Made by a program: the position numbers and the translations under genes. Below are positions 34,906-59,024 of a stretch of DNA of 64,000 bases, one piece after another; position 1 is the first letter of the stretch; each line of letters starts with the position of its first letter. The notes beneath the pieces are model-generated. The model searched no databases. It was not told where the DNA came from and saw nothing but the letters and a program-made list of their open reading frames with translations. Location of the stretch: contig OZ024740.1 of the NCBI GenBank assembly GCA_964016885.1, positions 198,710,001 through 198,774,000 of the forward strand. Reading direction: 5' to 3'. This DNA comes from Eledone cirrhosa. Taxonomy: Eukaryota.

Positions 34906-35077
34906 TAGGAGAAAGTATGACCCCGACGGCAGAGCTCAAGTGCAGAAATAGCCGTCGAAACGGCTTGAGCTCTGCCGTCGGTGTCATACTTTCTCCTATT
35001 ACTCACTCTACTACTCTAAGTATTGTGTACTCTGGTGTGTTATGGTCGATCTGGTTCCTTACCACAATTCCTCCGTT
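34906..35077. mobile_element. Element-A-family mini insertion (half hammerhead + tail), two-armed
   Basis: 34906-34941 minus arm, 34943-35077 plus arm matching 26584-26720; within (TA)n. Confidence 0.9.
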
Positions 35078-37060
35078 ATATATATATATATATATATATA
35101 TATATACATACACACACTCATATATATATATATATATATATATATATATATATATATATGTGTGTGTGTGTATATGTATATATTGATACATCATCGTAAT
35201 GTATTTAATATATCATGCTCTCGATCTTAACCCCAGGCCTTTAGAACAAACATATAATCAAAATCACTCCTACTATGTTCACCCTATATTTTCGCTTTAT
35301 TAGTATTGTTTAATTAAACGGGATACAACAATTATTAACACTGAGTGCCTCTATAACCTGTGGGAGGAACAACATGTTCCACAAACCAAGAGCCTTGTCT
35401 GGTTGCTAGTAGGTGGTGAATTACGACAAACTACTATATTGTCTGTTTCTTTCATTAAATACACGTCGGGTTCTTTTTTTTTATTGAAATTAAGTAGCTA
35501 GTTTTTAGTAAGTGTTGCCTAGAAATAACGCATCTCGTTTTATAGATTATACTTAGATGGACATCTCTGTATATGAATTTTATATTTTATTCAATGATAG
35601 TTTACCATTAATATTCAGCAATTGCATATTCACTCATCAATATATTTTCCGTCATTCTATATCATATATATCTCAATAGAAGTATCTAACACCCGCAAAG
35701 AAACTTTCAATGATATAAGGTACAGACATACAAACAAACTCCATCCGTCACACACACACGCACACATGCGTAAACACACACGCATAAACACACACACACA
35801 CACACACACACGCGCGCGCGCGCGCGCATATATATGCACTGTAATAAGTCCAATTATATTTCTAATTCCAATAAGTAAAATTTCAATGAATCTAACATTA
35901 TATGTTTTACCGTTTTATATTCTTCATCTTCCTGAGACGAAAGTAATTAGTTTGAAGCTCTAAGAGACCTCAATCGCAATGTGAACACCAATGAAGTATT
36001 TATTCATGAAATCATTCTCTTATATTTCTTCTTTGATTTAAATGAATGAGCTAGATTGCTACATTTGGACGTAGAATATACAATTGTATATCTGCATGTG
36101 GTGAGATAGAGTTATGCTGCACTCAGGAACGATTTCGAATACTAATTGTAACTAATTAGATTTCATTTTAGAAAGTTCAAATCGACAAACATCTATCGAC
36201 TATTTACTATTTTTATTTTTACTGTTTAGTCAATATCTTTTAAGAATGATTACAACAGAGTTGGCTCACTTAAATACAACTAAATGTTAGAGAAGGTGAC
36301 AGATTAACTCCACCAAACTCAATAGGCCAAAGGGTGAAAATTGATTACATCCTCCTCTTTACTTAACAGTTTATTTTATCGACCACGAAATAAATAAATC
36401 AAAGTTGATCTCAATTAAATTTAAACTCAGTGTGTAAAGAGTCGCATCAAATGTCCAGTGCTCTACATACATTTTGTCCAGTGCTCTACATACATTCGAA
36501 TGTATAATTTGTTTGCATATGATGCCGTGTCCACCTGTCATTAATTGAACTAATTTTAGTAGGTGTTGAAATGTGAATTGTGACCGTGTTTGACCGAGCG
36601 TGGAGTGGAAGTGAGGGATCAGAGAAACAGACTATATACAGCAAGATGTCTACGCTCTCACGCCGCTGTGAATTTGCGCCAATACATGATTGTAGAAATA
36701 TGATTGGAAAAGAGACAGTCATTAAAGTATATCAACATGTTTGGCTACTTGAAAAATCAATACCTTATTTATAGGAAATTCATTAAATAGTATTTTTAAA
36801 TTTTTAATAACCTGTAAGTTCACACCGATATGAAAGTTCGCACCCGTACGAACATGTTCAAAGAGTACACGAAATGAAAGAGGAAATATAAGAGGCATTT
36901 ATAATTTGCAGAATCTTAAATTACATATATTTAGAAAATGGGATAAATTGTTTGTGTAGGAAGAATTTAAAATTTCCAATAATTAATTGTAATTTTGTTA
37001 GTTCACAAAATTAAATAGATTTACGAAACATGTTCTCGAAATATTACTTGATTACTTATA

Positions 37061-37240
37061 ATTGTTTCTACTTTTGGCACAAGGCCAGCAATTACCCAGT
37101 GCATTACTGGTACTTTATTTTATAGACCCCGTAAGGATGAAAGGCAAAGTTAACTTCGGCGGGATTTGAACTCAGACCGTAAAGGGACGTAACTATGCTG
37201 GAAAGCATGGTGTCCGACTCTCTACCGATACTGCTAACCT
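37061..37240 (-). mobile_element. SINE copy with TSD
   Basis: Near-consensus; tacttgattacttataat duplicated. Confidence 0.9.
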
Positions 37241-37708
37241 ACTTGATTACTTATAATGCCATCGCATATTACATTTGACGGCAGTAATCCCTATATAGAA
37301 CTCCGAGAGTGTTAAAGTGAATACATACATTTTAAGTTCTTAAACAAGAAAACAGCGTGACAAATTGCGTTCCACGCGGAGATGGAAATGAATCGACTTC
37401 CGTCACTCTCGACAATGGATACTCCGGTTGCTCAATCAAAAGAAAAGCCTGCTCGTGAAATATGACTGGGCACTCCCCAGGTATCATTTTATTTATGTTA
37501 TGCTATATATCTGTGGAGTGCACAGTCATATATATATATATATATATATATATATGTAGATAAATCTACCAAGAGTTTACGGTAGTGTCCAATCCGTATG
37601 AAGAACTCAATGTAATCCGGATATCATGGAAAGAAGAGATGCAATGAAAAATCACTTTCGGTGAAAGATAAACGGAATACAGAGTCAAGATAAAATATTT
37701 AAAAAATA

Positions 37709-38566
37709 ATGAATAAAACAATGAAAACTCCTAATAAACAAGATAAAACACCTAAATCTACAAATCTAACTAAAAATGTGCGTGGTGAGATCATTAACAT
37801 TAATCCTCCTAGTAAACATCACGATACAACCTATACAAATAATAAACAACATAGAAACCGTAATAGACGAGTTACTTGGTATAATGCTCCATTTAATTTA
37901 CAAATTAAGGATAATATTGCTAAAAAATTTTTTTATATCCTAGAGAAAAACTTCCCGCCAAACCACAAATACCATCAAATCTTAAATAGGTCTACAATTA
38001 AATTCTCATACTCAACAACAAATAACATAAAACAAAATATAAGTGCCTATAATGCATATAAATGTAGGAATACCATAAGTATACCACCAATACATCAAAC
38101 TAACCATAATATCTCCTCAAATACAGAATTAACGAAAGGTTGTAACTGTAGAAACAAAGCAAACTGCCCATTAAAAGGAAATTGTCTTGTTAACAACATA
38201 GTTTATAAATGTAATGTTAAAACTAAAGATTCTATTTGCTCATATATAGGAGCTACTTCTAACAATTTTAAGGTAAGGTTTAATACCCACAAACATAGTT
38301 TTAAAAATGCCGCACTGGCTAATACAACATCTCTAGCAGAAAAAATCAATAGTTATAAAAATAAGAATATAGAATATGATATGACCTGGAGTGTGCTCAA
38401 AAGAGCCACCCCTTATCAAAATAATAGAAATGAATGTAGATTATGTTCCCAAGAGCTATTTGAAATAATGAAATCTAAGGATATCCTATTAAATAAACGA
38501 CAGGAATTAATTATATCGTGTAATCATAAACTAAGAAAAACATTTAAATATTATAAACCTAATTAA
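37709..38566 (+). CDS. Open 285-aa Naiad-type linker + CxCx5Cx5C zinc finger + GIY-YIG endonuclease (no RT)
   Basis: RNRRVTWYNAPF, KNFPPNHKYH, IKFSYS, CNCRNKANCPLKGNC, IVY..YIG, FKVRFNTH, CRLCSQE, LLNKRQE. Confidence 0.8.
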   Translation: MNKTMKTPNKQDKTPKSTNLTKNVRGEIININPPSKHHDTTYTNNKQHRNRNRRVTWYNAPFNLQIKDNIAKKFFYILEKNFPPNHKYHQILNRSTIKFSYSTTNNIKQNISAYNAYKCRNTISIPPIHQTNHNISSNTELTKGCNCRNKANCPLKGNCLVNNIVYKCNVKTKDSICSYIGATSNNFKVRFNTHKHSFKNAALANTTSLAEKINSYKNKNIEYDMTWSVLKRATPYQNNRNECRLCSQELFEIMKSKDILLNKRQELIISCNHKLRKTFKYYKPN

Positions 38567-57547: not shown

Positions 57548-57860
57548 AACGAAGGAATTGTTGTAAGGAACCAGATGGACCATAACGCACCAGGGTACTC
57601 AACACTTAGGGTAGTAGAGTGGGTAATAGGAAAAAGTATGACAGAGAGAGAGAGAGTGAGAGGGAGAGAGAGACATATATATATATATAGGAAAAAGTAT
57701 GACAGAGAGAGAGAGAGAGAGTGAGAGGGAGAGAGAGACATATATATATATAGGAAAAAGTCTGACCCCAACGGCAGAGCTCAAGCCGTTTCTGGACTGA
57801 GTCCAGAAATAGCCATCGAAACGGCTTGAGCTCTGCCGTCGGGGTCATACTTTTTCTTAT
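57548..57860. mobile_element. Element-A-family mini insertion, two-armed, with internal copies of flanking DNA
   Basis: Minus arm 57548-57798 is interrupted twice by (GA)-rich blocks; plus arm 57800-57860. Confidence 0.88.
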
Positions 57861-57944
57861 ATATATATATATATATATATGTCTCTCTCTCCCTCTCACA
57901 CTCTCTCTCTCTCTCGCTATATATATATACTATTTTACTCTTTC

Positions 57945-58640
57945 ACCTGTTCCAGCCATCCCGCTGAGGCCATGCTGGGCCCCGACCAGGTTGCTACATA
58001 TTCTAACTCCAGCCTGTGTTGGCTGGCTATTGGTGTAAGAGGGAGTTCGTTGCTGCTGCCCTTAGGTTAACTTCGTACCGTGCTGTGGGCTCAGCCAGGA
58101 TCCTGGATAATAGGGTGTCATGATGTTTCTTTAAAATATCCATTTCCACACCATGCAGATTTCTCAAATTTCATGGCAGCTTCTTGAAGGGTTTAGGGAC
58201 TTTGAACCCAGGCTATTGCAATATATGCTCCTTATTCTAGATGTGGCACCACACAGTGACGTCCTCTTCGGTGGCTAGTCCAGCTGACAATACAAAAGTT
58301 TGGTGCTAGTCCGTCCAGGAATTTCCATATGTATATCACTGCGTATCTCTCCCGTTTTCGTTCCAAGGTGTAGAGTTTCAGTTCTCTCCCAGTAACTCAT
58401 CTTCTTCATTGTAGCAATCCTTCTTTGGATTGTAGTTCAGCCTCTCCCAGTAACTCATCTTCTTCATTGTAGCAATCCTTCTTTGGATTGTCTCAAACCT
58501 CCTTGTAAATTTGTTCCAGGCGGCTTATAACAAATGTCCTGCATAGTATCAACATAGTCTTTCAGTCTCTGACGAGTTATCGCAAGAGAGTCGGGCCCCG
58601 TCACCTTGATTGTATCCTGAGCTGATCGATATCGAAACTA
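57945..58640 (-). mobile_element. Decayed CR1/L2-type LINE 3' fragment
   Basis: MSYWERL, LKLYTLERKRERYAVIYIWKFLDGL; internal duplication of about 57 nt at 58385-58490. Confidence 0.75.
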
Positions 58641-58861
58641 TTGTAATATGCAAATATAGTTTGTACATATGCTGCAACGCTGACTTCGACTCTTTTAAAT
58701 CTCTCTCTATATAACCCCCCCACACACACACACTCACTCTCTGTATACACACACACACATATATATATCATATATATATATATATATATATATATATATA
58801 TATATATATATATATATATATATATATATATATATATATATATATATACAGTATATATACA

Positions 58862-59024
58862 CTGAAGGAAGTGTGGTAAGGAACCAAGTGGACCATAACG
58901 CACCAGAGTACTCGATACTTTGGGTAGTAGGAAAAGGTTCAGGACCCCGACGGCAGAGCTCTAGTCCAGAAATAGTCGTTGAAACGGCTTGAGCTCTGCC
59001 GTCGGTGTCTTGAACATCTTCCTA
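58862..59024. mobile_element. Element-A-family mini insertion, two-armed
   Basis: Minus arm 58862-58960, plus arm 58962-59024; within (TA)n. Confidence 0.88.

Follow-up and report, generated by a model that had tools for sequence, protein, structure and literature searches.

The window, a 64,000-nt stretch of the 3.0-Gb genome assembly of Eledone cirrhosa (GCA_964016885.1, contig OZ024740.1, positions 198,710,001 to 198,774,000; 34% G+C and rich in (TA)n), harbors five short insertions, each of which carries the 3′ half of a hammerhead ribozyme and starts at nearly the same base. At the sequence level, these mini-elements are shown to be pieces of the 5′ untranslated region (UTR) of a Penelope-like element (PLE), a retrotransposon of the Hydra clade that inserts into (TA)n. 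The fixed 5′ start is a real feature of this family, present wherever the genome was sampled. The best reading of these observations is that the mini-elements are short run-off ('strong-stop-like') complementary DNAs (cDNAs) primed from both ends of the target; probably, these cDNAs ran off a capped, promoter-initiated RNA with its 5′ end in loop II of the hammerhead.

Half-hammerhead insertions in the window

We number the family from the A of TTT|AGTCC (+1); in this numbering, the predicted cleavage site of the hammerhead is C+41. The five arms in the window begin at 34939 (+1), 40331 on the minus strand (+6), 47399 (+8), 57800 (+1) and 58962/58963 (−1/+1), that is, 33 to 41 nt ahead of the predicted cleavage site, and all five lack the 5′ half of the ribozyme core, as the first-pass annotation had claimed. 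The same annotation placed the fixed start in the 3′ strand of stem II, and this part of the claim does not hold: the starts fall in loop II, which is roughly 39 nt long, up to 10 nt ahead of that strand (+11..+19). Its description of elements of about 140 nt with a tail applies to two of the five arms (34939–35075 and 40200–40331, about 135 nt); the other three stop at +61 and are 54 to 62 nt long. TA-rich repeats border both ends of each insertion.

Two of the arms are solo: a long arm of the AGAATTAGCC subfamily at 40200–40331 (minus strand, +6..+137) and a short arm at 47399–47452 (plus strand, +8..+61). Each of the other three is one half of a head-to-head inverted pair with the partner directly upstream, an arrangement absent from the first-pass annotation. 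The long arm at 34939–35075 (plus strand, +1..+137) consists of the 3′ half of the hammerhead and a 75-nt tail followed by (TA)n, and meets its short partner at 34905–34940 (minus strand, +26..+61, with (TA)n outside) at an AG microhomology. The short arm at 58963–59023 (plus strand, +1..+61) is paired with a long arm at 58863–58961 (minus strand, about +29..+137) that carries a 12-nt deletion. The most complex case is the insertion at 57550–57920. Its right arm is a short one (57800–57860, plus strand, +1..+61) preceded by a base, 57799 (G on the plus strand), that comes from neither arm; its left arm (57550–57798, minus strand), read directly from the sequence, runs from +1 through a 12-nt internal deletion, then contains two inverted copies of the genomic flank of the right arm, and continues with +45..+137.

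A fixed 5′ end across the genome

The arm sample consists of the window and loci L031–L220, drawn from position-ordered pattern matches, the 30 best tail matches and unselected stretches totaling 200 kb; it comprises 356 arms, 348 of which were kept after removal of 8 arms of a sister subfamily. Starts within −10..+12 account for 226 of these 348 arms, with 91 starting further downstream and 31 further upstream; among the tail-selected long arms, 53 of the 63 that reach +12 end within the same interval. The per-base end rate is 0.080 in −10..+12, compared with 0.0089 in +13..+44, 0 in −100..−11 and 0.0011 in −300..−101. Whole-genome counts of exact motif matches, which are rough because the motifs are unequally mutable, agree with the sampled arms: there are 36,165 matches to +1..+15, 23,932 to +29..+46, 39,157 to a 25-mer of the tail (about 87,000 tails by extrapolation, corrected by 33/73) and 7,307 to the 5′ half of the hammerhead. 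The fixed start holds beyond the window and exceeds what chance would give.

The stop recurs in the sister subfamily, whose loop sequence is different: of its 30 arms anchored at +11, 29 have their start within −4..+11, or 27 of 28 without two duplicated loci. An unrelated family of tandem hammerheads has spread 5′ ends, with 5 of 30 lying within 28 nt of GAAA. The start is not that of the self-cleavage product, in agreement with the earlier claim, given that the start is at the wrong place for this product and that a start at +40..+46 is seen in only 10 of 186 long arms. Contigs (three runs from one sample) over positions 380–1000 of locus L262 show a depth step and joints between opposite strands at 573–577, with +1 at 574; these features speak against an assembly artifact, although they are neither independent nor a sign of expression. 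A metagenome scan with the +1..+26 motif gave no matches.

The parent element and its ribozyme

A copy with the repeat at both ends (L371) defines a PLE unit of 3,013 nt. The +1..+137 segment is the element's own 5′ UTR, and natural copies that bear the open reading frame (ORF) run on to an ATG at +229. Copies of the family contain the reverse transcriptase (RT) motifs QFDI, GATDS and YRDD and the endonuclease motif VIY..YIG, and 1,350 homologs (E ≤ 0.001), all unnamed or hypothetical, have the same order of RT followed by GIY-YIG; a Pfam search with eight proteins and a PDB sequence search yielded no significant match. The assignment to PLEs with a C-terminal endonuclease (EN+) is made by these motifs, with no intact ORF seen among the copies examined. 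The hallmarks of PLEs, namely, a partial tandem of pseudo-long terminal repeats (pLTRs), an inverted 5′ copy and an optional tail, correspond to the repeats of L371, to 141 inverted pairs and to the ends at +61 or +137, respectively. Features of the Hydra clade include HSDKTG, the linker CNCPDRSTC (CxCX5C), the lack of CCHH and the pattern CNLC..E..N..CKH (CxxC/CxH), and a TA run follows 257 of 292 canonical ends. RWR stands where the Hydra clade has RWK (homologs show RWK, RWR or RWT), and the clade is called by motifs, not by a tree. A short upstream ORF of about 13 codons occupies +103..+145 of the 5′ UTR and ends just past the tail (L255, L257, L258 and L262). Five copies on contig C4 (351.9–352.3 Mb; L246, L247 and L252–L254), 97–100% identical together with their flanks, form a recent segmental array with a PLE fragment.

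In the window, the parent family is represented by element A, a 5′-truncated PLE at 24169–26140 (minus strand) with broken RT and GIY-YIG frames, the 3′ UTR and a hammerhead, which ends at +61; the inverted long arm of this insertion spans −477..+137 (26124–26718, plus strand, +1 at 26582). The hammerhead of element A (24186–24280, minus strand, +1 at 24231) is of type I, with the strands ACCCC-UUGAAAA ... GAAA ... GGGGU. Because its cleavage triplet is GAC and its stem III is mismatched, this copy is predicted to be inactive. The family as a whole has the type I core and three stems, with 90.7% of the pair cells standard compared to 20–52% when the pairing is slid, and the minimum free energy fold of L255 yields all three stems. 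Covariation is weak, with one two-sided change only, not above shuffles; there is free variation at position 7 and at the base following G10.1, and the core variants CUGAGAA and UUGA[ACGU]AA coexist across subfamilies (L336, L352, L353 and others). An Rfam scan of the window returned 135 matches at E ≤ 1, none of them a hammerhead and none at the gathering score, mostly microsatellite artifacts.

A candidate promoter in loop II

We propose that +1 is a start site of RNA polymerase II, marked by an initiator-like YAGTC and a TATA-like box at −29/−31, with a second start near −4. The new transcript would hold the 3′ half of the ribozyme alone, with the whole ribozyme forming only at the downstream repeat; the RT would begin at +61 or +137, copy to the capped 5′ end in loop II and run off. 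In the window, the putative core promoter extends over 26552–26586 (plus strand), from TATTTAT at −30 (26552) to TT|AGTC (26580–26585). Among 30 position-ordered copies with the 5′ half, all 29 readable ones have a TATA-like box at −29 or −31 (TATTTAAA in 12, TATTTATT in 11 and variants in 6), and the +1 context in readable copies is TT|AGTC in 20 and TC|AGTC in 4; TATTTAT is present in 43 of 57 copies of a more biased set. We take the box to be akin to TATA and the +1 site to the invertebrate initiator TCAGTY.

The base at −1 provides a further line of evidence. With T and bases that the partner arm can supply set aside, this base is G in 16 of 27 cases (p = 2e-4 against composition), compared to 7 of 32 distal control arms that start at +13 or later (Fisher p = 0.007). 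Genome-wide, G at −1 (7,111) exceeds A (about 1,070, from 15 among the first 100 of 7,132 A/C matches) by about 7 to 1. In 100 listed rows of fully complete palindromes, the −1 base is T in 67, G in 18, C in 11 and A in 4, and G is found on both arms in 6 of the 50 listed among 2,739 loci with both arms complete. An extra G is described as the cap signature of full-length L1 insertions (PMC11702581, available in part). The initiator-like motif, the TATA-like box and the excess of untemplated G at −1 together point to a capped start at +1. Splicing at TTTAG was ruled out as a source of the common end: AG is retained in the arms, which share no common upstream exon or leader.

Several observations weigh against a capped start. 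The sampled arms come mostly from the first 22 Mb of contig C1. Compared with arms starting at +2..+11 (17 of 46, p = 0.09), many of which precede G+2 or G+7, the excess of G does not reach significance, and about 3 of the 16 G cases possibly come from the flank or the partner. Genome-wide, C at −1 (about 6,060) is nearly as common as G, which templated TC|AGTC, partner arms and mirrored G explain only partly. In the sister subfamily, the usual −1 base is C, not G, and its one upstream-extended copy (L290) has no TATA-like box. None of nine ORF-bearing copies begins at +1, the starts being +22, +16, −12, −13, −62, −172, −231, −310 and beyond −848; the ORF-bearing L266 starts further upstream. 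Many arms of the hotspot extend past +1 to −3..−5; TCATTY at −4 in some subfamilies would account for these. Finally, in the available parts of the respective reports, the promoter of Drosophila virilis Penelope is internal and TATA-less (PMC2377424), and its hammerhead lies at the 3′ end of an intron, downstream of the start (PMC4209133). Because the D. virilis start sits upstream of the hammerhead, the present layout, with the start inside the hammerhead, is not the known one; promoters and starts inside the pLTR are known for PLEs (PMC2377424, PMC8557442), and TATA and initiator-like motifs have been noted in a rotifer pLTR (PMC3846280), all three sources being available in part.

A sharp stop in an unpaired loop would likewise result if +1 were an uncapped RNA end, generated by a nuclease that cuts loop II of a longer or tandem read-through RNA, with the RT running off at the cut. 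The modest size of the G excess, its absence from the sister subfamily and the long copies that do not begin at +1 are compatible with such an origin. We nevertheless consider it unlikely, in view of the G excess over the distal controls, and over A genome-wide, and of the initiator-like and TATA-like motifs that occur at canonical spacing in subfamilies with otherwise different loop sequences.

The first-pass annotation had suggested a strong RT stop inside stem II. Structure can hardly account for the stop at +1, because the RT has already traversed stems I, III and II when it halts in an unpaired loop; besides, the stop is maintained in the sister subfamily with its other loop sequence and is missing in the unrelated hammerhead family. 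The broader version of this explanation, in which the RT stalls on structure or a bound protein at the hammerhead in a read-through RNA, can invoke two nearby structures, stem II and an alternative hairpin at +12..+27 with pair probabilities of 0.52–0.97. Structure should, however, halt the RT on its 3′ side, at +19 or +27, where ends are rare; the spread ends of the unrelated family do not fit this scenario either, and once a copy extends beyond −10, further stops are almost absent (none of 10 copies at risk ends in −100..−11). Such stalling therefore appears improbable.

Paired arms and probable priming from both target ends

The capped start would explain one end of the mini-elements; their 3′ ends lie at +61/+63 (132 arms and neighbors) or at +137 (154 and neighbors). 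Head-to-head pairs include 282 of the 348 arms, and 135 of the 141 pairs combine a long arm with a short one. The two arms of a pair have subfamily letters in common in 62 of 80 cases (shuffled mean 15, maximum 24). The long arm is the more truncated one in 42 of these 135 pairs, its start lying over 10 nt downstream of that of the short arm, and in 13 it starts beyond +61, with no overlap between the two; therefore, fold-back of a single cDNA cannot yield these pairs, and pure fold-back as the source of all pairs is ruled out. Fold-back synthesis, with a signature of slippage, also takes place, as seen in the insertion at 57550–57920. Among 100 listed copies with the 5′ half, 42 are in long/long head-to-head pairs within 5.5 kb, compared to 31 of 348 arms that pass −10, and thus both arms probably use the same repeat. 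Likely, both target ends are primed on the same repeat of one type of RNA, with the 5′ repeat giving rise to the mini-elements and the 3′ repeat to the long copies.

The ends at +61 and +137 fit the two RT start sites of the PLE tail: in vitro, an Anolis PLE has two RT start sites that define the tail, and both target strands are cleaved and extended (PMC11167929, available in part). We infer that the enzyme cleaves (TA)n on both strands and that each of the two ends serves as a primer, one for synthesis from +61 and the other from +137. Start sites near the 5′ end of the RNA would yield cDNAs of 60–137 nt that are joined head to head via microhomology or fold-back synthesis, and start sites at the 3′ repeat would yield the rarer long copies with a whole hammerhead.

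Could the junction itself set the apparent start, with cDNAs annealing or folding back through microhomology or a weak hairpin at +1 (CTAATTT versus AGAATTAG, with palindromic AATT)? Palindromic centers of the AAATTT type are frequent, junction palindromes of inverted PLE copies have been taken as self-priming (PMC3846280, available in part), and the 57550–57920 insertion exhibits fold-back copying. However, arms that are solo or whose partner is distant share the +1 start, the sister subfamily, which lacks this repeat (TATTGGGTT|AGTT), still stops there, and ends do not accumulate at stronger palindromes, for example GAGCTC (+29). We regard this explanation as quite improbable; probably, microhomology shapes the junctions without setting their place.

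The first-pass annotation also suggested a discrete, non-autonomous mini-retroelement whose RNA is cleaved in trans; that such an element, about 140 nt long, is propagated as a unit is very improbable despite the very high copy number of the short form and a trans duplex that can form in silico, considering that 68 of 74 junctions are distinct, there are two different 3′ ends, many subfamily variants are common to long copies, the pieces lack the upstream TATA-like box and 5′ ends do not pile up at the cleavage site. The distinct junctions and dual 3′ ends also differ from what is expected of a short interspersed nuclear element (SINE)-like master structure copied as a unit, and the solo or inverted mini-elements without the 5′ half are not non-LTR retrozymes, which consist of tandem units with complete hammerheads.

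Trans-cleavage is possible on paper and is best kept as a side hypothesis. The modeled trans duplex (−24.1 kcal/mol versus −13.4 for the free 3′ half) makes the I/II format thermodynamically possible in silico; the promoter-initiated RNA is predicted to bury GAAA in the +12..+27 hairpin, although this hairpin could give way to a free 5′ half. Among the 186 long arms, there is no clear trace of cleaved templates.

More tentatively, and with considerable doubt, the observations may be combined into a single scheme: a core promoter in loop II, a terminal repeat (+1..+137) resembling the R region of retroviruses, a dimeric enzyme that primes the two target ends, strong-stop cDNAs and their strand transfer to the 3′ repeat, with mini-palindromes as failed transfers and the ribozyme setting the ratio of short to long products. 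If so, the tens of thousands of mini-palindromes would be a fossil record of failed strand transfers, long and tandem copies would come from transfer to the 3′ repeat, and ribozyme cleavage, in cis at the 3′ repeat or from there onto the 5′ half-site, would set the short:long ratio.

Other features of the window

The unrelated hammerhead family is found at 21150–22400; its core is the canonical CUGAUGA, its units, each about 550 nt long, are arranged in retrozyme-like arrays, both tandem and inverted, and it has 9,628 exact 18-mer matches in the genome. A third repeat family, at 53700–57535, occurs in direct and inverted copies with a TA-flanked end and contains a hammerhead-like CUGAUGA...GAAA motif near 57427. 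GIY-YIG-like frames with CNC..CP..C linkers at 37703–38566 (plus strand) and 62559–63836 (minus strand) belong to other PLE families. The frame at 1593–2009 is a candidate fragment of a PIF1/Helitron-type helicase, which it resembles at the motif level.

Relationship to known systems

The hammerheads, tails, inverted ends and TA targeting of PLEs are known already. What appears to be new is the dominant fixed 5′ end, its site in loop II and the long-plus-short rule that would record double priming: none of these, nor a strong-stop product, turned up for PLEs in a literature search that had subscription papers, Repbase and most supplements outside its range. This family provides a genome-scale record, resolved to the single base, of the two arms, the two RT start sites and the likely 5′ end of the RNA, which bears on how PLE tails, pseudo-LTRs and inverted ends form. 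If the preferred explanation is correct, there should be a transcription start, a ribozyme loop that houses a promoter, and priming of both ends in vivo. Short hammerhead halves and palindromes listed in repeat libraries should not be assumed to represent independent families resembling SINEs or miniature inverted-repeat transposable elements.

In retroviruses and LTR retrotransposons, the RT soon runs off at the capped 5′ end of the RNA and leaves a short cDNA, the minus-strand strong-stop DNA, and in L1 twin priming a second priming event yields an inversion. The present element would work alike, with short run-off cDNA, inversion upon second priming and a cap-derived G, but is a member of neither group: it is target-primed, without a tRNA primer or integrase, and, unlike in L1 inversions, its two arms overlap in sequence.

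The closest known elements are the EN+ PLEs of the Hydra clade (Craig et al. 2021, PMC8557442), here as below compared on the available part of the publication. Both have a length of about 3 kb, one ORF, DKT, the CxCX5C linker, no CCHH, CxxC/CxH around E and N, a (TA)n target, a hammerhead, an inverted 5′-truncated copy and an optional tail; they differ in RWR here versus RWK there and in a tail of 75 nt versus 30–40 nt, and the available text makes no mention of a 5′ end that is both fixed and dominant. Poseidon PAc of Anolis (Frangieh et al. 2024, PMC11167929) shares the two internal RT start sites that define the tail, an AT-rich target, cleavage and extension of both strands and an uncleaved RNA template. 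In PAc, however, the RT start sites are in the ORF, which begins in stem II, whereas here they are in the 5′ UTR; run-off to the RNA 5′ end is not described for its genomic copies in the part available. The PLE hammerheads of Cervera and De la Pena (2014, PMC4209133) share the type I fold, the U3-A8 variant of the core and a palindromic loop III (GAGCUC) and likewise are mostly single motifs from truncated copies; in the present family, the core promoter probably sits in loop II, which measures about 39 nt, and most copies are the 3′ half alone. Non-LTR retrozymes (PMC7229834; bioRxiv 10.64898/2026.07.22.740005) are also short, non-coding, hammerhead-related derivatives of PLEs, but are built of tandem units with whole hammerheads, whereas the pieces described here are single or inverted half-hammerheads.

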